This document shows, in pieces, positions 14,592-28,900 of a DNA stretch of 32,000 bases. Positions within the stretch are counted from its first letter, which is position 1, and every line of letters begins with the position of its first letter. The notes under the pieces are model-generated. The model was not told where the DNA came from. It searched no databases and worked only from the letters and a program-made list of their open reading frames with translations. Source of the stretch: Microcystis aeruginosa NIES-2549 (lineage in GTDB: Bacteria; Cyanobacteriota; Cyanobacteriia; Cyanobacteriales; Microcystaceae); NCBI RefSeq assembly GCF_000981785.2, contig NZ_CP011304.1, positions 780,001-812,000 of the forward strand, written 5' to 3'. Position numbers and translations under genes: made by a program.

Positions 14592-15821
14592 ATGACTTCT
14601 ACCCTCTTGCCGAGCTTTCCTGCTGTTGACGATGTTTTGTTCAATTTCGCTCAATCTGATGGATTTTGGGCGAATTTAGAAACTGCTTTTGGCACAAGTT
14701 ATGATGTGGTTAAGGCGACGCAATTACGACAGCAGTGGAAAAGTCGAGATTTTAGTCAAATTCCCCCAATTGAGGTACTTAGTGATGAGGTTTTGGGGAC
14801 GGCGAATGGTGCATATTCCAGCAGTACCAATAAGATTTATCTATCAGCATCTTTTTTGAATACGGCATCGTCAGCAGCGATAATTAATGTAATTTTAGAA
14901 GAAATTGGGCATTATGTGGATGCTCAAATTAATCAGGTGGATAGCGCGGGAGATGAGGGGGCAATTTTTGCAGAGTTGGTGCAGGGAAATAGTCTGGATG
15001 TGGCAACCTTGGAGGTATTGAAAGCTGAGGATGATGCGGGGGTAATTAGTATTGGTAGCGTGAGTATTGCAGTTGAAATGGCGAATTTGACAGGGGATGG
15101 TAATAATAACAATATTTCGGGGACAAATGAGGATGATGTGATTGATGGGTTAGGGGGTAATGATACCCTAAGTGGTTTAGGGGGTAATGATAGTCTGATT
15201 GGTGGAATAGGTAATGATGCTCTCTATGGTGGTACAGGAAATGATACCTTAGACGGGGGAGATGGTCGTGATGGACTCTATGGAGAAGAGGGGGACGACT
15301 ATCTCCAAGGGGGGGCAGATAATGATAACCCAGATTACTGGAATGGTAATTGGCGAGTTGGTGGACTCTACGGCGGTGCTGGAAATGACACTTTAGATGG
15401 AGGCGATGGGGATGATTATCTAGACCCTGGTGAAGGTATTGATAGTGTGATTGGGGGTGCAGGAAATGACCAAGTTCTTCTCAACTACAGCAGTGACACC
15501 AATAGCTTAACTATCAACTACACCGATGCTAACAATGGTACGGTTTCCAATGGAGAAACCATCAAAGAAATTGAAAGTTTCAATTTGTATTTGGGGAGTG
15601 GGAACGATACGGTCAATCTAAGTGCAGCGACTGGGGTAATCTATGCTGAAGGCGGCTTAGGTAACGATAACATCACTGGTGGTAAGGCTTACGACAATCT
15701 ACATGGGGGAGAAGGGAATGATACCTTAGACGGGGGAGATGGACGTGATGGACTCTATGGAGAAGAGGGAGACGACTATCTCCAAGGGGGAACAGATAAT
15801 GATAACCCTGACTACTGGAAT
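14592..15821 (+). pseudogene. 5' fragment (410 codons) of the giant RTX/Calx-beta/cadherin/S8 surface-protein gene, severed by IS insertion
   Basis: A conserved N-terminal module (..FGTSYDVVKATQLRQQWKSRDFSQIPPIEVLSDEVLGTANGAYSSSTNKIYLS...VILEEIGHYVDAQIN) is followed by GGxGxD nonapeptide repeats. The listed ORF 14592..15896 reads 25 codons into the IS before its stop. The native sequence resumes at 16968 in the same frame. Confidence 0.85.
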
Positions 15822-16967
15822 AGACCTCTCCATAATTTAATTAAATCACAATATATAGGATATAATAAAACAAATAGTAACTCAAAAAAGCCATGAAAAA
15901 CTACACTTGGGAATACATTCAAAAATATCCGAAACAAACTAAAAGACTATTAGGAATTGACTACCAACAACTAGAACAACTGATGGCACTTGGAAAACTT
16001 ATACATCGGAAAAACCAATCAGAAATCGAAAAAACCAAAATTAGGATTAATCAACCAGGAAGCGGAACACCTCCTAAATTATCAGAAGAGGAACAAATTG
16101 TTCTAATGTTGGTTTATTTAAGACATCATCTAAGCTTTCAAATCTTAGGACTAATATTTCAAGTGAGTGAATCAACGGCTCATAATATCTTTACCTATTG
16201 GCAAAAACTTTTTGAAGGAGAGTTACCGCCAAGTTTGTTAGAACAAATAAAGAAGTGCCAAGAAGAGGAAATAATAATTGAACAATTAAGGGATTATGAG
16301 TTGATTGTCGATAGCGCAGAACAGCCCGTGGAGAGGCCGACCGATTATCAAGAACAAAAAATATATTATTCGGGAAAGCAAAAAAGACATACTTTAAAAA
16401 GTCAATTTATTGTCTTGCCAAAAGCTGAAGATATTGTTGATGTAGTTATTGGTCAACCTGGTCCGACGAGCGACATAAAAATCTGTCGGCAAACTTTAAG
16501 CAAATTCGATTCTCAACAAACTTTTATTGGAGATAAAGCTTACCTAGGAGAAAATCAAATCAGAACTCCTGATAAAAAACCTAAGAATGGAGAATTAACC
16601 GAGAATCAAATTAAAGAAAATAAAGTTTTATCATCTCGGCGAATTTTTGTTGAGCATTTAATTCGAGTTGTCAAAGTATTTAAAGTAGTTCAAGAAAGAT
16701 TTAGATTAAATAAAAGTCGATATAAATCGGTTTTACTGACCGTTTGTGGCTTAGTAAGGTTGAGAATTAGTGCGCTAATTTTAGAAGTAATAGAAGGGGA
16801 GCAATCAGGGGAAGTAATTGACGTTATAATTAGCCATAGTTTTCCGTCAAAATTGGATTTTGTCTCTTCAAACCCTGATTAATCGGTTTTGAGAGCTAAT
16901 TTTGACTCTTGGTCTAATCTGCCTCTCTTCCTTGCTGTGACTGACTTATAAATTTTTGGAGAGGTCT
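15822..16967 (+). mobile_element. 1,146-bp insertion sequence (IS5/Harbinger-like DDE_Tnp_4-type transposase) with a 3-bp target duplication
   Basis: Terminal inverted repeats AGACCTCTCCATAATTTAAT (left) and AGACCTCTCCAAAAATTTAT (reverse complement of the right end). The first 11 nt are identical. AAT is duplicated at 15819-15821 and 16968-16970. Removing the IS plus one AAT restores ...DYWN|GNWQVGGLYGG..., exactly as at the intact unit junction at 17445-17450. Confidence 0.9.
15893..16882 (+). CDS. IS transposase (N-terminal HTH plus DDE domain)
   Basis: DDE-type pattern LIVDSAEQPVERP ... YYSGKQKRHTLKSQFIV ... FIGDKAYLG ... RIFVEHLIRVVKVFK. The YSGK.KRHTLK motif is typical of DDE_Tnp_4 / IS5-Harbinger-type transposases. 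Subgroup assignment is uncertain. Confidence 0.85.
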   Translation: MKNYTWEYIQKYPKQTKRLLGIDYQQLEQLMALGKLIHRKNQSEIEKTKIRINQPGSGTPPKLSEEEQIVLMLVYLRHHLSFQILGLIFQVSESTAHNIFTYWQKLFEGELPPSLLEQIKKCQEEEIIIEQLRDYELIVDSAEQPVERPTDYQEQKIYYSGKQKRHTLKSQFIVLPKAEDIVDVVIGQPGPTSDIKICRQTLSKFDSQQTFIGDKAYLGENQIRTPDKKPKNGELTENQIKENKVLSSRRIFVEHLIRVVKVFKVVQERFRLNKSRYKSVLLTVCGLVRLRISALILEVIEGEQSGEVIDVIISHSFPSKLDFVSSNPD

Positions 16968-19900
16968 AATGGTAATTGGCAAGTTGGTGGACTCTACGGC
17001 GGTGCTGGAAATGACACTTTAGATGGAGGCGATGGGGATGATTATCTAGACCCTGGTGAAGGTATTGATAGTGTGATTGGGGGTGCAGGAAATGACCAAG
17101 TTCTTCTCAACTACAGCAGTGACACCAATAGCTTAACTATCAACTACACCGATGCTAACAATGGTACGGTTTCCAATGGAGAAACCATCAAAGAAATTGA
17201 AAGTTTCAATTTGTATTTGGGGAGTGGGAACGATACGGTCAATCTAAGTGCAGCGACTGGGGTAATCTATGCTGAAGGCGGCTTAGGTAACGATAACATC
17301 ACTGGTGGTAAGGCTTACGACAATCTACATGGGGGAGAAGGAAATGATACCTTAGACGGGGGAGATGGACGTGATGGACTTTATGGAGAAGAGGGAGACG
17401 ACTATCTCCAAGGGGGAACAGATAATGATAACCCTGACTACTGGAATGGTAATTGGCAAGTTGGTGGACTCTACGGCGGTGCTGGAAATGACACTTTAGA
17501 TGGAGGCGATGGGGATGATTATCTAGACCCTGGTGAAGGTATTGATAGTGTGATTGGGGGTGCAGGAAATGACCAAGTTCTTCTCAACTACAGCAGTGAC
17601 ACCAATAGCTTAACTATCAACTACACCGATGCTAACAATGGTACGGTTTCCAATGGAGAAACCATCAAAGAAATTGAAAGTTTCAATTTGTATTTGGGGA
17701 GTGGTAACGATACGGTCAATCTAAGTGCAGCGACTGGGGTAATCTATGCTGAAGGCGGCTTAGGTAACGATAACATCACTGGTGGTAAGGCTTACGACAA
17801 TCTACATGGTGAAGCCGGAAATGATACCTTAGACCCCGGACTCGGTAGCGACTACGCCGACGGAGGCACCGAAACCGACACCCTGAAAGTTGACTACTTC
17901 TCCTTAAGTACCAATATCACCTCTACAGTGCCTAATAATGGCGGTGGTACTATCTCCACCACTGGAAACTCTGTAAATTACGTCAATATCGAAAAATTTG
18001 ACATAACCACAGGTAGTGGTAACGATAACCTCATCGGTGGCAACCTTGACGATACCTTAAAGGGAGGCGCAGGAGATGACATCCTTAACGGTGGTACAGG
18101 TGTTGACATCCTTCAAGGAGGGGTAGGAGATGATTCCTACATCATTGATGAACTAGGGGACACCATTAATGAAAATGCAAGCGAAGGTAAAGACCTCATT
18201 CAAGCCTCTGTTTCCTATAGCATTGAAACCATCGCTAACGTTGAAAATATCACTCTCACAGGCACAAATAACCTCAGCGCGACAGGTAACAGCCTTAACA
18301 ATACCCTCACAGGTAACAGTGGCAATAATACCCTTACTGGTAATGCTGGTAATGACACCTTAGAAGGGGGGGCCGGGAATGACTCCCTAAATGGTGGGGA
18401 TGGTAATGACAGGTTAATAGGGGTTAACTCCACTGCTGCTACTCCCGGAGTTGGTGAAATTGATACATTAGAAGGGGGAACAGGTGCAGACCGTTTTATC
18501 TTAGGAGATGCAACCAAAGCCTACTATGATGATGGTAATACTAGCGCTAATGGCACGGCTGATTATGCTCTAATTAAGAACTTTAATATCAATGAGGATA
18601 AGATTCAATTATCGGGGGCAAAGAGTAACTATATTCTGGCTAATTCTCCCATTACCGGAGTTTCAGGAACAGGAATATTTCTGGATAAACCAGTGACAGA
18701 ACCCGATGAATTAATTGCCGTTGTTGAAGGAGTAACAGGATTAGATATTAATGGTAATGCTTTTGGCTCAATTCTCACATTACTAAATGATAATTTTAAT
18801 AGTGAAAGAGGGGGTTCTGGGACATTAAATTATACGGATTTAATCAATTGGAGTATCACCAATGGTAGTGTTGATTTAATTGGTAATGGTTACATTGATT
18901 TGCAGCCAGGCAATGGTTTGTATTTAGATTTAGATGGTTCGACTAGGAATGCTGCCCGACTAGAATCTAAACAAACGTTTAATTTTAACAGTGGCGAACT
19001 TGTTACCTTACAGTTTTCTTTAGCCAATAATGGTTCAGCTACCAACTCGGCTACAGTTTCTTTAGGTAATTTATTTAGTGAGATTTTTTCCTTAACTGGT
19101 TCTCCTCCTTTTACAACCTTTACTCGTAGTTTCCAAATTAATAATTCTTCTAGTGGCAAACTTATCTTTGATCATGCAGGAGGAGATAATTTAGGATTAT
19201 TACTGGATAACGTAATCTTAACTTCTGAAACTGGAAATGCTCAATCACCCGGTACTTTATCATTTAATACCGCCACCTACAGCGTCAACGAAAACGGCAC
19301 AGCAAATATAATCATAAATCGTACAGGAGGAAGTGACGGTACAGTTAGCGCAACCATTACCTATATAGGGGGTACAGCAACCGCACCATCTGACTACACT
19401 AATACCCCCATTACCGTTAATTTTGCTGATGGGGAAAACAGCAAAACCGTCACCATTCCCATTGTTAATGATAGTAACTTTGAACCTAACGAAACCGTTA
19501 ACCTAGCCTTAACCAACCCCACCAACGGCGCAACCATTGGCACACAAGCAACAGCTAATCTAACCATTATTGACAATGATTCCCCAATTCCGGGAGTATT
19601 AGCCTTTGATCGTTCTACTTATACCATTAATGAAGACGGTACACCTGTTATTGCTGTCGAAGTAGTTCGGACAGGGGGAAGTGATCTCGAAGTTAGTGTT
19701 ACTTTAACTCCTAGTAATGGAACGGCGATCGCCGCTGATGACTACACAAACACCCCCATTACTGTCACTTTTGCCGATAAAGAAACCAGTAAAACTGTTA
19801 CCATTCCTATCAATAATGACACCGTTTATGAACCTACAGAAACCGTTAACCTGACCCTATCTAACCCCACCAATGGCGCAACATTAGGAACACAACAAAC

Positions 19901-22900
19901 AGCCGTTTTAAACATCATTGATAACGATGCTGTGCCGGGTGTTTTAGCCTTCTCTCAAGCTAATTACAGTATTAATGAAGACGGAACTACTGTAATAGCT
20001 GTTACAGTTAATCGTACCAATGGAAGTGATGAATCAGTCAGTGCTACCATTAGCTTAAGTGATGGTACAGCTACCCGTCCCGAAGACTATACTAATACCT
20101 CAGTTACCGTTAATTTTGCCAACGGTGAAACCAGTAAAACTGTTACTATTCCTGTCGTTAATGATGGGGTATTTGAACCCAATGAAACCATTAATTTAAC
20201 TTTAATTAATCCTACTAATGGCGCAACTATTGGCACCCAAAATACAGCCACTTTAACCATTATTGATAATGATACTTTACCCGGAATAATAGGCTTTAGT
20301 GGTGCTAATTTTACTGTTAATGAAGACGGTACACCTATTACCCAAGTTACCCTGACTCGTACAGGCGGAAGTAATGGCGAAGTTAGCGTTACTTTAACTC
20401 CCGATGGTGGTACAGCAACCGCAGGAAGTGACTACAACAACACCCCCATAACTGTCACCTTTGCTAACGGAGAAACCAGTAAAACTGTTACTATTCCTAT
20501 CAATAATGATACAGTTTATGAACCTACAGAAACCGTCAACTTAACTCTATCTAGTCCTACAGGTGGCGCAACATTAGGAACCCAAACAACAGCAGTTTTA
20601 AACATCATTGATAATGATGCCGTAGCAGGTGTCTTATCCTTCAGTAATGCCACTTATAATATTAATGAAAATGGCACACCTGTCACCCAAGTTACCATTA
20701 ACCGGACTGGGGGAAGTGATGGCGCTGTTAGTGCTACTGTCACCCTAAGCAACGGTACAGCAACAGCCGGAAGTGATTATGTTGCGAACCCTATCACGGT
20801 TAATTTTGCCAACGGAGAAACCAGTAAAACTGTTACTATTCCCATCATCAATGATACTGTTCTAGAAAATACCGAAACCATCAACTTAACCCTAACTAAC
20901 CTTACTGGAGGAGCAACAATTAATGATGCACAAAAGAGCGCAATTGTCAACATTTTAGATGATGATTTTAAACCCACTTTAACGGTTAATATTAATCCCC
21001 AACAGGTCAACGAAGGTAACACGATTCAGGGAACTGTCACCCGTAATACAGACACCACCCAACCCTTAACAGTCACCTTAGTTAATAGTGAAAATAGTCA
21101 AATTACTGTACCTACAACTGTTACTATTCCAGTAGGTGCAACTTCGGCTAATTTTAACATCACTGCGGTAGATGACACCTTAATCGAACTGCCAAAAAAT
21201 TATACTATAATTGCTTCTGCTGCTGGGTTTGTTAGTAGTTCTAATACTGTTGCTGTCACTGATAATGATGGGGTAAATTTAACTCTCACCATCTCAGGGG
21301 GGATCTCCGAGAATGGTGGTAAAATTTTAGCAACTGTCACCCGTAACATTGTTACCAATACTCCCCTAGAAGTTCAACTCAGTAGTAGCGACACCACCGA
21401 AGCAACCACACCCCAAACCGTCATTATTCCAGCGAATCAAGCATCTGTCACCTTTGAAATTCAAGGGGTTGATGACACCATTTTAGATGGAAATCAACTC
21501 GTTATAATTACCGCTAAACCGACCTATACAGGGACAAATTTAGCCATAGACGCAGGACAAGCAACCGCTAACCTAAATGTCACCGATAATGAAAGTCCCA
21601 GTCTCACCCTCACCCTCGATAAAAACATTATTAGTGAGACAGGAACCGCAACCGCTACCATTACTCGTAATACTGCGACAACAGAAGCATTAACTGTCAC
21701 CCTCACCAGTGGTGATACTACCGAAGCAACTGTACCCAATACCGTTACTATTCCTGTCGGACAAACCTCGGCTACTTTTATTGTCACTGGGGTTAATGAT
21801 GGAGTTAATGATGGTATTCAAAGTGTCACCCTCACCGCAACTGCAAACGGGTTTAATAGTGGGGTAAAAACCATCGAGGTTAGTGATATTGATGTACCAG
21901 ATTTACAGATTACTAACTTAGCACCAACAACTAACCCCATTTATACGGGTAAACAGTCTTATTTAACCTATAAAGTCGAAAATAAAGGTTTAGCTCCTGC
22001 TTCGGGAACTTGGACAGATAAGGTTTATCTTTCTACAGATAATAAACTTGATAGTAGTGATAGTCTAATTACTGAAACTACTTTCACCCCTAATATTCCT
22101 TTTAATTCCTTCTATGAGCGTAATATTCCCTTCTTTGCGCCGAGAAATGCGGGACAATACTATTTAATTGCCACCACAGATGCTAATAATACTGTTAATG
22201 AGGGTACAGGGTTAGGGGAACAGAATAACACGGTTATTACTCCCATTACGGTGATACCTGCTTATAAAGCTACGGTTTACACTGATACGGTAATTGGTAC
22301 AAATGGACAAGCGGTAACATTACGGGGAAGTGCGGTTAATAATGCCGATAATTCCCCTGTACCTTTTGAATTTGTCACCATCAGGATTGAAAATAACGGC
22401 ACAATTCGGGAATTAAGCGCGTTTACCGATGGAAATGGTAACTTTGTTAAGAGTTTTAACCCCTTACCCACCGAAGGGGGACAATATAACATTAATGCTT
22501 ATTTCCCCAATAATCCCACCGAAGACACCGCACCGGAAGACAGTTTTAAGCTGTTGGGGATGAAATTTAATACCAGTCAAGTCACTAATAAAGTCATTGC
22601 AAATACTCCCTTTACAGGTACGGTGACGCTGGAAAATATTACTAATATGGGGATAACGGGAATTACTGCAACCGTTGATAGTGTAGTACCCGGTTGGAAT
22701 GTGCAGGTAAATACTCCCCAAAATTTAGCAGGTTCGGGGAATAATACCCTTAGTTATACCATTACTGCACCGAATGACTCTTATATCACTCAAGATACTT
22801 TTAATATCAAGCTTACCAGTACCGAAGGTGCAACGGCGGTATTACCTGTTAATGTTAATTTAGAGCGTATTGTCCCCCGTTTAGTCGCTTCGACTAATTT

Positions 22901-25900
22901 AGTCAGTGGTGGAATGTTACGGGGTAATCAAACCGTTGTCGAGTTTCAGGTAACAAATGAAGGGGGAGGAATTGCTCAAAATATTGAGGTAGAGTTACCT
23001 AATGAACCTTGGTTAAAGTTAGCTTCTCCTGCGACTATTTCCGCATTAAAGCCGGGGGAATCGACAAAAGTTACTTTATTATTAACCCCTGATGCTAATT
23101 TACCGTTAACGGAATATTTCGGTAATTTCTTCTTAGATGCGGAAGGGAATGATGGAGATTTATCTGTTAATTATAATTTCCGAGCGATAAGTGAAGCGAA
23201 AGGTAATATACGGATTAATACCGTTAATGAATTATTCTACTTTGCTGAAGGTTCGCCGAAGTTAGCAGGTGCAACGGTGACATTACGGGATTATTTCACT
23301 AATGAAGTAATCGCTACGGCGGTGACAGATAATACGGGATTAATTAACCTGTCTAATATCAATGAGGGTTATTACAATTTAGAAATTAAAGCAGATAGAC
23401 ATGATACTTTCCGTCAGATTATCCAATTAGATGCAGGGGAAACGGAGAATATTAACGCCTTTTTATCCCGTAATACGGTGCAATATAACTGGACAGTTAC
23501 ACCGACAGAAATTGAGGATAAATATAATATTACAGTTGAGAGTGTTTTTGAGACAGATGTACCCATTCCTACAGTAGTAATTGATCCCCCGTTAATTGAT
23601 TTAGAAGGGTTAGATGTAGTCGGTCAAGTCATGCAAGTGGATATGACTTTGACTAATCATGGTTTAATTGCCGCCAATGATCTTAAGTTTAGTTTTAGCG
23701 ATCATCCTTTCTATAAAATTGAACCTCTGATTAATAATATTGAGTCATTAGGGGCAAAAAGTTCCTTAACTGTACCTGTCAGAATTACTCGTATTGCTGA
23801 TGAGAATACGGTCTTAAATAGTAGTAGTCAACTGTCATTACAAAGTAGTGGCGATTTGGTAACTTTATCTTCAGGTGGGGGTTGTGGGATTTCGGGATCT
23901 GTCGGTTATTCCTATTCTTGTGGGGGTCAAGATGTTGGTAAATCGGCAGGTATTGGGTTTAATAATGTAGCAGGTTCTGGTGGTAGTTGTGGTGGACCTT
24001 GGAATCCTCAAGGTGGTGGTAGTGGTGGTGCTGGTGGTAGTAGTAGTAGTAGTAGTGTTGCTACTTCTTCGGGGGATTGTAATCCTTGTCTCGAAAATTG
24101 GAAGAAAATACTATTAGGTTGCGGTTTAGCCATTAGAACTTGTGTTACTAAGGCTAATCCAATCTTTGCTTGCCTTGCTTATGTTGGATCGTGCATATAT
24201 GACCATGAAAGTGCCAAAGGAATCGTAAATTGTATTACTGGCTGGATTGGTTGTATTCCAGGTGCAGGGGGAGCATTATGTGTATACAAAATCAATTTCT
24301 GTTTGATTGACATTTTAACTTGTGGGGAATTTGGTTCTCCAGTTCATAATTTATCTACAGATAATTTACACATAGCTAATTCTCAGGTATCAATCATTGG
24401 TGAAATTAGCAAATATAAAAACAGAATAGACAAAATAATCAATTTTTATACTGCTTTTTTCGGCGACGATATATGGCTACAAGGTGAAAACGAAGAAAGT
24501 ATCAACAATTGGCTCACAAGTTTCTTGGATAAAATTGGAGAGTCTAGTGAAGACAGTTTGAAAATTTCTGTTGCAGAACGCAATTCTTTGCTCAACATAC
24601 AACTTCCTGATAAAGTTACAAGAACAGATGTTGACAAATTTATAGAAAGATGGAATCGTTCAATAGACTACTGGAATAACGGGATTTTTAACCTAGCAGA
24701 TGTACCTAATGGACAAAGTAATAATTTTATCGCAATTGATGTTTTAGGAAATGCTGCCAATGCAGTAAATCAAGCTGTAGAACAGTCTCAAGCAGAAGGT
24801 TTTTCAAATATGCTTGAAGGTGCTGAATTTTATGTAGAAGAACTAGGGAATATTTTAGGAATTAGTAATACTATTGGTATCACAAACTCATCTATCAATG
24901 AAAGTGCTACCAATAACAATGAATTAGTAATAGCTCCTTTAGCCAATGGAATCGGTAGCGTTTGCGCTCAAGTCCGTATCACCATCGACCAAGAAGCGGT
25001 AATGACTCGTTCCGCATTCCTTGGAACTCTCGAAATAGACAACGGCAACCCCACCAACCTAACCAACCTCTCCATTACCCTGCAAATTACCGACCAAAAC
25101 GGCAACATAGTTAACAACCTCTTTGGTATTACTAACCCCACCCTGAAAAACATCACCGCAGTAGATGGTACAGGTATCCTCATCGGCGATGACCCCAATA
25201 CTCCCCAAAATGAAGGGTTAGGTAGTGCAGAATGGACATTTATCCCCACTAACCTCGCCGCACCCCAAACCGCTACCACTTACAACATCGGCGGTACTCT
25301 TTCCTACACCGAAAACGGACAAGTTATCAACGTCCCCTTACTTTCTACAGGTATCACCGTCTTACCCCAAGCGGAATTATACCTAGATTACTTCCAATCC
25401 CGTAACGTCTATGGCGATGATCCCTTTACCGATGCTACCGAAGTATCCGTACCCTTCGATCTCGCCGTCTTAGTCCAAAACAAAGGTTATGGGGACGCTA
25501 AAAACCTCAATATTACCTCATCTCAGCCCAAAATCATCGAAAATGAAAAGGGCTTACTGATTGACTTTAATATCATAGGTTCTCAACTCAACGGACAAGA
25601 CGTTAACCCCTCCCTTAAGGTCAACTTTGGGGACATCAAAGCCGGAGAAACCGCCGTTGCTAACTGGTTACTCAAGTCCACCCTACAGGGTAAATTCATT
25701 GAATACAAAGCCACCTTTGAACATATCAACGGACTGGGTAACAAAGAACTATCCTTAATCAAAGAAGTCAAAATCCATGAATTAATCAGTAAAGTCAAAG
25801 CAGACAGCGATAACCTGCCTGATTTCTTGGTTAATGATGTATTTGATGCCAAATTCTACCCCGATACCCTCTACTTTAGTAATGGTACTACTGCACCCGT

Positions 25901-28900
25901 CACCGCCATTGACACAGCCACCGTTGACGCACCCGTTACCATTTTCGATTTAGAGGCACAAATCATATCCCCCCCTTATCAAGGGGGGTTAGGGGGGATC
26001 GAACCGCCTCAAGGCTGGAATTACATCCGTTTAGAAGATCCTGCTAACGGACAATTCCAAATTAAACAGCTATTACGTTCTGATGGAACAGCGATCGCCC
26101 TAGATAACATCTGGCGCACAGATCGCACTTTCCCTGCTACAGGTCGCCCTAAATATGAAAATATATTACATTTTCTTGACAAAGACAGCACGGGCAGCTA
26201 CACAATCACCTACGATAGTAACGACTCCGCATCGCCTCAAGTGCGAGAAATCATTGACGTTAGCCCAAATCCCCGTAATATTCCCGTTAATAACTTAACT
26301 GTTGTCTTTAGCGAGCCAATACGCGCTAATAGCTTCGATTATCAAGACCTTACCTTAACCCTTGATAACGGTGCCAACTTAATCACCAATGGGGTGACAA
26401 TCAGCCAAATTGACCCCATAACCTTCCAAATTAACAACTTAACCGGTATTACGGGTAATATTGGACAATATCAACTCAGTGTTAATGCGACAGGTATCCA
26501 AGACTTAGCGGGTAACGCCGGAGCCGGTATTGTTAACGAAAACTGGACATTTACAGGAGATAAACCCGGTATTGATTCAATTACTGGCTTTAACTCTACT
26601 TTAATTAACACTGCTGTTGATACCTTTGATGTCACCTTTACCGAGGCGATTATTCCCAATAGCTTCGACTATACCGACATCACCCTAAGACGCAACAATG
26701 GCGCAAGCTTAGTTAACAATACCGTTACCATTACCCAAATTGACGCTACAACCTTCCGAGTCAGCAATTTTGCCCAATTTACTAACATTGAGGGAGATTA
26801 TCAACTCTTAGTCACCGCTAATGGTGTCCAAGATACCGATAATAACAACGGTGTCGGGGGTAAAGGGTTTAACTGGGTACTGGATAACACTATTCCTACC
26901 CTTACCAGTATCACTAATGTCACCAGTCCTCGTAATACCGCAGTTAGTAGCCTAGAAATCAGCTTTTCTGAAGCAATAAAACCTGATACCCTTGATATTA
27001 ATGATTTAACCCTTACCCGTGATGGTAGTGTTAATTTAATTACCAATAGCGTCACCCTAGAAAAACGCAATGAAACCACCTACACCATCAAAGGGTTAAG
27101 CGGACTGCAAACTGATAACGGTATTTATACCCTCACCGTTAATGGTACAGGGATCAAAGATACTGCAGGGAATAGTGTTAGCAACTCCTTAAGCCAAAAT
27201 TGGACATTAGACCGCATTCTGCCGAGTATTCCCACAAATATCCAAGTTAGTGCTACTCCCACATCCCAACTACAAACCACCTCACTAGGCATTCTTAACC
27301 AATTCGGACAATTCCGAGTTAATAGTCAAAATATCACCATTACAGGCAATTTAGCCGAATCTAACCTGAAAGTATATATCAAAGACCTAACCACTAACCA
27401 AGACTTGGGACAAGCAACAGTTACAGGTACTCAATTTACTGGTAATATCCAACTTCCCTCACCTGGCGCAAAAGATATAGAAATCCGGGTAGAAGATACC
27501 GCAGGAAACACCACCAATACAACCTTAAGTCTATTTGCAGACATCACCCAACCAGTCCTTACCCAATTTATCAACGTTCCCCCCTCAACCGCCAATCCCA
27601 TCAACAGTATTGATGTTCAGTTTTCTGAAACTATTAACCTCAATACCTTTGATAAAAGTGATATTACCTTAACCCGTAATGGTGTCACCCTAACCCTTCC
27701 TAATACCGTAACCGTTGAATATCTCTCTGATACAACCTACCGCATTAACGGATTAGGCGACTTAACCAACACCCCCGGTATCTATAGCTTACAGGTTGAC
27801 GCAACCACCATCCAAGACAACGCCGGAAATAGCGGAGACGCAGCCAAAACCACCAGCTTTACCATTACTCCTCCTCCCACCCCAGGAGTCACTTTAACCC
27901 AAACTGGGGGTAATACCACCGTCACCGAAGGAGGTAACACCGATACTTACTCTCTCGTCCTCAAAACCCAACCCACTGCTGATGTCACCATTACCCTAAC
28001 CAGTAACAATCAAATCACCCTCAATTCAACTAGCCTTACCTTCACTACAACCAACTGGAACACTCCCCAAAACGTCACCATTACCGCAGTAGATGACACC
28101 CTAACAGAAGGAAATCATACTGCTACCATTACCCACAATGTCAGCAGTACAGATACCAACTACAACGGGTTAACCCTTCCTAATGTTAATGTCAATATTC
28201 AAGACAACGACGCTGAAATAAAAGGCAATATTTGGAATGATATTGATGGCAATGCCGTTAATAACAACGAACCCAGTTTATCAGGCTGGACAGTCTATTT
28301 AGATGCTAACAATAATGGGCAACTTGACACAGGAGAAACCACAACCCAAACCGATGTTAATGGTAACTACACCTTTAATAATCTACGCCCCAGAACCTAT
28401 ACTGTTGCCCAAATTGTCCAAGAGGGTTGGCAACAAACCTATCCTATTCTGAATATCACAACTACCGCCTCTGAGGTTGCGTTAGCCATTCCTACTTTAG
28501 ACTTTATCACTGCCTCTGAATCTAGCTTAATTAACTTTAATCGTGCTAATTATCTTGTTCAAGAAGATGGCACTCCAGTTACAGAGTTTTGGCTAACACG
28601 CACGGGCGATGTGTCTAATTCAGTAACTGTGACACTCAACCTTTTAGATAGCACAGCTAAAGGTTGTAGTTGTGCCGCTAGTTCTGTCAATAATGATTTT
28701 AATAATGTTTCCTTTACCCTTACCTTTGCAGAGAATGAAACTAATAAACTAATTACGGTTCAAAATGCGATTCTCGGTAATCCCAACGCAATTAAGATTC
28801 GCAATGATAGCAAAGTGGAAGGCAATGAAACCTTTACCATTAAGCTCACTAACCCCACAGGGGGAGCAGTTATCGGGGAGCAAGGAACAGCAACGGTCAC

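Follow-up and report, generated by a model that had tools for sequence, protein, structure and literature searches.

A predicted disulfide-laddered helical hairpin in a hypervariable cassette of a giant RTX-type protein from Microcystis aeruginosa NIES-2549

Why should a bacterial protein of more than 5,000 residues, nearly free of cysteine along the rest of its length, gather most of its cysteines in one short stretch? The question is raised by a 32,000-nucleotide stretch of the Microcystis aeruginosa NIES-2549 genome (contig NZ_CP011304.1, positions 780,001 to 812,000; hereafter the window), in which the frame of a giant protein is open on the forward strand from 16941 to the window end (5,020 codons). 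An earlier note, made from the DNA letters, had pointed to an orphan Gly/Ser-rich and Cys-rich stretch of about 150 amino acids at 23868-24340 and had offered four mechanisms for it: a disulfide-laddered knot, a metal-binding cluster, a membrane-inserting segment, or a processing or cross-linking site. Here we describe this stretch as the N-terminal two-fifths of a module of about 380 amino acids, inserted between beta-sandwich domains, which represents a widespread, phylum-spanning protein family found in no curated family. In the reading that we favour, with a probability of roughly 0.6, the cysteines cross-link an antiparallel helical hairpin into a disulfide ladder, and this hairpin is the first arm of a helical insert that acts as an exchangeable recognition or adhesion head on a giant RTX-type surface protein.

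The open reading frame (ORF), longer than 5,020 amino acids, contains 17 cysteines, with codons starting at 23883, 23919, 23988, 24078, 24087, 24120, 24141, 24171, 24192, 24231, 24252, 24279, 24300, 24321, 24963, 28665 and 28671. Fourteen of the 17 lie within 147 residues (nucleotides 23883-24323), and the chance of such a concentration in one span of that size is about 1e-15; the clustering reported earlier is therefore borne out, as are the contexts GGGCG, YSCGG, GGSCGG and CNPC and the (AGT)6 tract at 24039-24056. Our recount of the spacings also agrees, including the statement that five of eight intervals are exactly six residues: from CNPC onward the intervals read 2-10-6-9-6-12-6-8-6-6, with five exact Cx6C. 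In 200,000 shuffles of the segment, at least five gaps of exactly six arose 25 times, and any spacing repeated at least five times arose 763 times. An artefact of chance or low complexity, or a functionless pseudogene segment in decay, might be suspected from the insertion sequence (IS) element in the gene, the fragmentation of related loci and the low-complexity linkers on either side. As an explanation of the pattern it is refuted and keeps next to no probability, given that the statistics are far from chance, the frame stays open for more than 5,000 codons, the cysteine columns are kept across phyla and the structural model is confident.

The unit first described as a single module of about 150 amino acids resolves into a beta-hairpin with three cysteines, a flexible linker and an alpha-hairpin, all within an insert of about 380 amino acids that extends to 24965. 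Read along the forward strand, a conserved upstream beta-sandwich flank (23562-23810; ..TNHGLIAAND..HPFYKIEPL..AKSSLTVPVRITRIAD), 96% identical to that of the homologue P0001, is followed by hairpin A (23874-23990), whose strands are predicted by AlphaFold2 (AF2) at low confidence. The first three cysteines of the earlier note lie here and form part of what we call the framework: A1 (23883), A2 (23919) and A3 (23988), spaced A1-x11-A2-x19-A3, with exactly three cysteines present in 95 of 141 members. A Gly/Ser-rich flexible linker that includes (AGT)6 comes next (23991-24074; predicted local distance difference test score, pLDDT, below 50); across the family this linker has a median length of 38 amino acids and is 29% Gly and 13% Pro. 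Segment B (24078-24323), which begins with [SND]-C-D/N-P-C, is assigned as an antiparallel alpha-helical hairpin from AF2 helices and conserved cysteine columns. Its 11 cysteines are C1 (24078), C2 (24087), C3 (24120), an extra one (24141), C4 (24171), C5 (24192), C6 (24231), C7 (24252), a second extra one (24279), C8 (24300) and C9 (24321).

Segment B passes into the helical domain H (24357-24854; FGDxxW .. RWNR[ST]xxYW .. GQSxDF), delimited by AF2 helices and alignments, which is free of cysteine in 124 of 141 members and has invariant R, W, N, R, Y and F residues. In the AF2 model its helices span residues 94-259, with mean pLDDT of 90-98 over 10-residue blocks and 76 for residues 151-160. 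A Ser/Asn-rich linker (24855-24962; residues 271-295 with pLDDT below 50) then leads back to the beta-sandwich, where the framework cysteine Cv (24963-24965) opens the conserved downstream beta-sandwich domains (24963-25720; AF2 strands, flank 85-92% identical). The surrounding motif, G-V-C-A-x-V-R-I-x-I-D-Q-E-A-V-x-T-R-x-A-F, is nearly invariant and its cysteine is present in 141 of 141 members. This residue, noted earlier as the SVCAQV cysteine outside the cluster, thus belongs to the same module of about 380 amino acids.

How far does the module extend beyond this strain? The first homology search recovered 19 partial proteins, and a pattern scan limited to a single genome for each species yielded 74 loci in at least six phyla, spanning cyanobacteria, Verrucomicrobiota, Planctomycetota, Bacteroidales, Hydrogenedentota, Sumerlaeota and others. 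A profile of the 405-amino-acid region matched 45 giant ORFs end to end, and a HMMER search of 1.84 billion cluster representatives returned 1,397 proteins at E<=1e-3, 286 of them at E<=1e-30. Two of three word-indexed homologue searches gave 5 and 10 matches among 8,000 candidates, with little gain, and we suspect that the candidate list of the search with 5 matches was filled by Gly-rich words. The module lies mostly in the middle of proteins of 1,000-7,500 amino acids, and the rest of these giant proteins is nearly free of cysteine (0-0.7% Cys). A scan of neighbouring domains in six shorter family proteins and fragments found CARDB, NEW3 and CarboxypepD_reg recurring upstream (P0040, P0045, P0088, P0109 and P0052) and Ig-like domains recurring downstream (L025, L033, L066 and others).

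Searches of Pfam-A 2025 and NCBIfam r20 gave no family for nucleotides 23601-25500, and Pfam scans of 32 members found no family common to more than 1 of the 32 at E<=1. Sequence searches of the PDB, by single sequence and by profile, reached E values of 0.2-0.3 at best, which are not significant, and literature searches gave no relevant account of a giant protein, from Microcystis or from other cyanobacteria, that contains this region. The description of the stretch as an orphan that fits no family is therefore right as far as curated families go, and wrong with respect to homologues, of which at least 1,397 cluster representatives exist. What emerges is a large module that is absent from Pfam and for which a disulfide map can be proposed.

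That map rests on the conservation and pairing of the segment B cysteines. An alignment of 129 members resolves nine high-occupancy cysteine columns, C1-C9, in the pattern CxPC-x10-C...[Cx6C]...[Cx6C]...[Cx7C], with loops of variable length separating the conserved pairs; the window sequence has all nine and the two extra cysteines. In the 80 members that have all nine, C1-C2 is x2 in 74, C2-C3 is x10 in 63, C4-C5 is x6 in 57, C6-C7 is x6 in 61 and C8-C9 is x7 in 59. In 46 modules taken together there are 62 instances of Cx6C, where shuffles give 16.1 +/- 4.0, so the motif picked out in the earlier note is a family trait. Our survey of homologous giant proteins thus finds both the Cx6C pattern and the cysteine positions conserved, and profile and structure searches produced no confident match to a known Cys-rich family.

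The cysteines are also lost in pairs. C5 and C6 are absent together in 13 cases, all four of C4-C7 in 5, and C3 with C8 in 3 and additionally in L001; more rarely, C4 and C7 are lost once, and C2 and C9 once, the latter together with C5 and C7. The C4-C5 and C6-C7 spacings covary, being (6,6) in 56, (10,10) in 11 and (14,14) in 3 of the 80 members, and these matched values of 6, 10 and 14 amount to two, three and four turns of helix in each arm. An AF2 model of segment B and domain H, built from a 32-sequence alignment (pLDDT 83.5, predicted template modelling score 0.80), places segment B helices at residues 3-41, 46-59 and 64-85 with pLDDT of 80-93. Counting C1 as residue 1, the residue numbers sum to 91 for C5-C6, 91 for C4-C7, 90 for the two extra cysteines, 90 for C3-C8 and 86 for C2-C9, and sums that stay so nearly constant are what an antiparallel hairpin should give. 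Because one extra cysteine lies between C3 and C4 and the other between C7 and C8, they would add a nested rung of their own.

Taken from three independent lines, namely co-loss, covariation and the helix register of the model, the predicted arrangement is a nested ladder of C2-C9, C3-C8, C4-C7 and C5-C6, with the two extra cysteines as a putative fifth rung in the NIES-2549 allele, so that two long helices are probably pinned together by five disulfide bridges. Of the four mechanisms originally offered, it is thus the disulfide ladder that the co-loss, the spacing covariation and the AF2 helices favour.

An alternative for the same facing cysteines is a metal-thiolate site, in which they would bind Cu(I), Zn or another soft metal in the manner of copper storage bundles. 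The AF2 model and the spacings do place the cysteines on the inner faces of paired helices, and covarying spacings prove that cysteines lie opposite one another but do not prove a covalent bond between them. However, the cysteines are lost in pairs, and in most members segment B, C1 aside, has an even number of them; no conserved His, Met or Asp partners stand out in the alignments, in which no specific test for them was made; and Pfam gave no match at E<=1 to Cys-rich metal families, the Csp/DUF326 metal-storage profile included. The RTX-type host is moreover an exported protein that is otherwise free of cysteine, a pattern typical of extracellular disulfide domains. We therefore consider metal binding unlikely.

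The proposed ladder has parallels among known stapled hairpins. In the mitochondrial intermembrane space, CHCH proteins with a twin Cx9C and small Tim proteins with a twin Cx3C are antiparallel helix-turn-helix proteins with one CxnC per helix and two nested disulfides. The C4-C7 plus C5-C6 unit resembles them in its equal-n CxnC on two predicted antiparallel helices, and would resemble them in nesting too if it is paired as proposed, a pairing supported by the joint losses of C5 with C6 and of C4 with C7. The module differs in its x6 (or x10 or x14) spacing, its four to five rungs against two in CHCH, its arms of about 40 residues and its location in an extracellular bacterial protein of more than 5,000 amino acids, and it shows neither sequence similarity to these proteins nor a CHCH-type Pfam match at E<=1; on spacing (x6 rather than x9), bacterial host and Pfam result, membership of the CHCH family proper was rejected. 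If the ladder is as drawn, the helical-hairpin principle of the twin-CxnC proteins would gain a series of spacings, x6/x10/x14, and ladders with as many as five rungs. Plant alpha-hairpinins (CX3C-Xn-CX3C) and Cs-alpha/alpha toxins are free peptides of 30-50 amino acids with two disulfides and x3 spacing; they share with the proposed ladder of segment B the idea of a nested, disulfide-stapled alpha-helical hairpin as a stable extracellular scaffold, whereas the hairpin of the module is internal and continues into a helical bundle of about 170 amino acids. The Helicobacter cysteine-rich proteins (Hcp), built of Sel1-like tandem 36-residue repeats with one disulfide per repeat, are, like the host of the proposed ladder, bacterial exported proteins with regular cysteine cross-links between paired helices, but the module has no Sel1 match and its proposed topology is one nested hairpin rather than a solenoid.

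Could the hairpin instead enter a membrane, or bind lipid, as do ClyA-family alpha-pore-forming toxins or saposin-like domains? The window allele is fairly hydrophobic, a CxxC at a helix start recalls saposins, and PaxB, XaxB, HblL1 and AhlC are among the top fold matches, all of them non-significant (E>=0.19, probability <0.4). In a Foldseek search of the PDB with the model of segment B and domain H, the best E value was 0.19, and NasR, PaxB, XaxB, HblL1 and chemoreceptor bundles appeared at low probability; a search of the viral library BFVD gave no match (best E 0.33). The 75-amino-acid segment called hydrophobic in the earlier note is moderately so, with a Kyte-Doolittle mean of 0.80, yet its best 19-residue window reaches only 1.46, short of transmembrane values, and charged residues are spread along the whole segment; in the homologues listed, the equivalent hairpins are rich in charged and polar residues. 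Pfam shows no SapB or toxin family, and five inter-helix cross-links would be expected to hinder the opening needed for insertion. A membrane-inserting hairpin therefore appears very unlikely. As a separate candidate, a saposin-like domain was rejected on the lack of a SapB_1 or SapB_2 match at E<=1 and on the 9-11 cysteines, whose pattern differs from that of the six-Cys saposins.

Is the laddered hairpin a fixed part of its protein? Comparison with close relatives delimits a hypervariable cassette of 1.15 kb (23805-24955, forward strand) by breakpoints in DNA similarity, comprising hairpin A, the linker, segment B, domain H and the second linker. On the left, similarity ends at 23801-23809, or at 23989 in L083; on the right it begins again at 24953-24960. 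Five relatives have their breakpoints in these two intervals. In L078, identity is 97.7% on the left up to 23801 and 89% on the right from 24954, with an unalignable interior. In L079 it is 94.8% up to 23809 and 91.8% from 24960, and between these points hairpin A keeps 80% identity and one 130-nucleotide patch 70%, the rest being unalignable. The left flanks of L077, L080 and L081 are 88-91% identical up to 23809 and their right flanks 85-86% from 24953, with two short patches of 68-70% in an otherwise unalignable interior, while L083 has 86% up to 23989, nothing alignable inside, and 75% from 24956. L082, with 79% up to 23801 and 76% from 24956, contains a different, beta-rich insert. The protein of P0001 shows the same contrast, its flanks being 96% and 92% identical and its hairpin A, segment B and domain H 45%, 38% and 35%.

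A break in composition falls at the right edge of the cassette: at about 24950, GC content rises abruptly from 0.33-0.36 to 0.49 and GC skew, positive up to there, drops to about -0.3. Near-identical flanks, an unalignable interior and sharp common breakpoints are thus found together, and this combination indicates that the cassette is exchanged among related strains. Mutagenesis by a diversity-generating retroelement was ruled out, since the whole cassette is replaced rather than altered by adenine-specific changes. Upstream of hairpin A, L079-L081 carry a long Gly/Thr repeat linker of the (GGTGGGT)n type where the window has ENTVLNSSSQLSLQSSGDLVTLSS, and the number of repeats differs between L080 and L081.

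Other alleles show different contents at one position, after hairpin A and its Gly linker and before GVCAxV. Segment B, domain H and the second linker are all absent from P0005, and in P0008 a DUF3238 domain replaces them. P0013, P0015, P0016 and L082 have a beta-rich insert, bracketed by CC motifs, in place of the helical cargo. Because other cargo or none occurs at the same place, we regard the site as an insertion point for exchangeable cargo. A protein from Desulfatitalea (P0019) has a similar beta-sandwich flank, a Cys-containing stretch and a Gly-rich linker, followed by RHS repeats.

From these observations a mechanism may be sketched. The framework cysteines would hold the base of the insert, and the Gly/Ser linker would tether an antiparallel alpha-helical hairpin whose arms have about 40 residues each; its cysteines, at facing core positions i and i+7 (Cx6C), would be oxidised after export to nested disulfides. 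Such a ladder might give an exposed arm that resists proteases, force and unfolding outside the cell, and the insert as a whole could serve in recognition or adhesion as an exchangeable head on which diversifying selection acts. The last step is suggested by the contents of precisely this site, where closely related strains have alleles unrelated to one another or a different cargo, and export with disulfide formation is consistent with a host protein that is RTX-type and otherwise avoids cysteine. A similar logic is known from CdiA, a giant filamentous surface protein with a modular, strain-variable receptor-binding region in mid-protein. The likeness lies in a sharply bounded, divergent internal cassette with conserved flanks and alternative alleles in close strains; the difference is that the host of the module lacks FHA, YP or toxin-immunity architecture, and that binding is only a candidate role. 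In the bloom-forming M. aeruginosa, the module marks the one cassette of the giant surface protein that is hypervariable and recombines, and this cassette is a candidate for strain-specific adhesion, colony formation or interaction with phages or grazers.

What, then, do the remaining cysteines do? Five of them, A1, A2, A3, C1 and Cv, make up a framework that persists as a five-Cys minimum even in alleles without the helical insert. C1 is retained when all other segment B cysteines are lost (NCDPR, NCDPQ, NCNPL) and thus must have a different partner from C2, which is lost in those cases. As C1 (in CxPC) and Cv (in GVCAxV) stand at the entry and exit of the insert, the framework cysteines probably tie its base. 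Counted over the module, the cysteines are odd in number in 41 of 45 members of one set, in 106 of 141 of another (P ~8e-10) and in 121 of 162 of a third, and the totals are odd too in alleles with other cargo or none. Apart from the module, the window ORF has the GCSC pair only, 1,240 residues away. The odd count and the nearly Cys-free remainder of the protein together suggest that one conserved framework cysteine is probably unpaired.

Two lines of evidence address which cysteine this might be. Loss of A3 by itself, seen in P0058 and in P0151/P0164, leaves an even total, while P0069 lost A1, A3 and C1 together; the co-loss analysis comprises four informative exceptions only, and it fits A1-C1 and A2-Cv pairs with A3 free, an assignment that stays provisional. 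The geometry of the insert-less P0005 fits an A1-A3 pair with C1 free. A single extra cysteine recurs in domain H of unrelated members at about residues 135, 227 and 237 (numbering of the window model), and the total then becomes even; these recurrent residues may show where domain H faces the framework cysteine that lacks a partner.

An unpaired cysteine raises the alternative that the reactive thiol is the point of the module, making an intermolecular disulfide or a thioester-type bond, with the ladder a mere scaffold. In favour of this reading, beyond the odd counts in 106 of 141 and 121 of 162 members, many members have no other cysteine in the whole protein for pairing, the minimal framework has five cysteines, sole losses of A3 and recurrent gains in domain H both bring the total to an even number, and GVCAxV...Q...R..AF is nearly invariant. 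On the other side, the co-loss data (A3 free) and the P0005 geometry (C1 free) disagree on the residue concerned, and no CxEQ or TQxA(I/V)W thioester motif is present. The 745-residue model of the whole region (pLDDT 64) gave generic Ig-like matches only, plus weak matches to C3b and alpha-2-macroglobulin; the latter (C3b, A2ML1 and A2M; template modelling score about 0.1, probability 0.5-0.66) disappear when the helical part is searched alone. Thioester proteins, such as A2M/C3 and the Gram-positive adhesins with a thioester domain (TED), do resemble the module in having a helical domain amid beta-sandwiches and a conserved, possibly unpaired cysteine. The TED fold is an alpha/alpha toroid; the module differs in lacking CxEQ, in its helices of 35-40 amino acids and in a helical part without a TED match. 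We give a cross-linking function of this kind a small share of the probability, somewhat above that of metal binding. In proteins that elsewhere avoid cysteine, an odd number in the module suggests a thiol that may be reactive.

Several other candidates were considered for these cysteines and rejected. A thioester domain at the end of segment B does not suit the window's TCGEF, which has no Gln, and in the homologues listed the last segment B cysteine mostly precedes other residues, for example in CDDL, CDEL or CLEF. A thioredoxin-like CxxC was set aside on the all-helical model, the retention of C1 without C2 and the lack of a Pfam match; a RiPP/TOMM-like (ribosomally synthesised and post-translationally modified peptide; thiazole/oxazole-modified microcin) precursor, on the position of the segment inside a 5,000-amino-acid ORF. 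Asp-Pro self-cleavage at CDPC does not agree with a D that is only 72% conserved and is N in the window, nor does intein- or hedgehog-type cleavage at GNC agree with the unconserved residue before A3.

A bolder combination would be a new, phylum-spanning plug-in head of giant bacterial surface proteins, in which the five-Cys framework holds exchangeable cargo (here the twin-Cx6C laddered helical domain) at one site of a beta-sandwich rod, one cysteine is deliberately kept free for a disulfide or thioester-like link to a partner molecule or to a second copy of the protein, and the cargo is swapped between Microcystis strains under selection by phages, grazers or cell recognition; we offer it as a speculative extension and think it rather improbable. 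The laddered, exchangeable head itself has several points standing against it. Its proposed function is read from architecture and population pattern, and the searches for structural homologues gave no lead. The predicted pairing comes from co-loss, spacing covariation and helix register, and the facing cysteines could in principle bridge metal ions. AF2 confidence is low for beta-hairpin A and the neck region. L009, L027 and L033 have lost all hairpin cysteines and kept domain H, so that the ladder is not essential to the module. Finally, the C-terminal secretion signal of the giant protein lies beyond the window, and the protein may not be made in NIES-2549 because its gene is split by the IS element.

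RecJ, also encoded in the window, has the same protein sequence in strains NIES-2549, NIES-2481 and NIES-3806. The giant gene in fact starts upstream of the long frame. Its true start is an ATG at 14592, and its N-terminal part (14592-15820, forward strand), with RTX repeats (HemolysinCabind), is cut off by the IS element (15821-16968), beyond which coding resumes in frame; the remainder of the giant ORF (16969-32000, forward strand) has more than 5,000 codons and continues past the window end. The IS element contains DDE_Tnp_4 and HTH_Tnp_4 domains, with a DDE_Tnp_4 transposase ORF at 15893-16882, and is bounded by inverted repeats of 21 nucleotides at 15821-15841 and 16948-16968. The N-terminal ORF (14592-15896) ends in ...DNPDYWN after translation enters the IS sequence, and the frame resumes with ...GNWQVGGLYGG. 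A perfect direct repeat of 300 nucleotides (15342-15641 and 16968-17267) stems from adjacent RTX repeat units, with the IS between them. Among related cyanobacterial loci, L159 and L077 are broken into several short called genes and L159 adjoins a transposase. Disruption or mis-assembly may be frequent at loci of this kind. In L159, the C-terminal piece contains Peptidase_S8, Calx-beta and RTX repeats.

RTX nonapeptide repeats are present in the host protein (HemolysinCabind, E values of 1e-38 and 4e-27), and none of 10 scanned upstream ORFs matched any transporter family. Upstream of the module, Pfam domains comprise RTX, five Calx-beta, CARDB-like/NEW3 and CarboxypepD_reg-like domains; downstream they comprise Big_5, SdrD_B, Calx-beta, a subtilase and six cadherin domains. 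The subtilase domain (Peptidase_S8, 29061-29852) is embedded in the giant protein, and the GCSC pair (28665-28673), the only other cysteine pair of the ORF, lies in the Calx-beta domain immediately upstream of it. Two tandem arrays accompany these domains: a 345-nucleotide array at 19667-20899 (3.6 copies, 70% matches) corresponds to Calx-beta repeats, and a 315-nucleotide array at 30126-31992 (5.9 copies, 97% matches) encodes near-identical cadherin repeats and continues past the window end.

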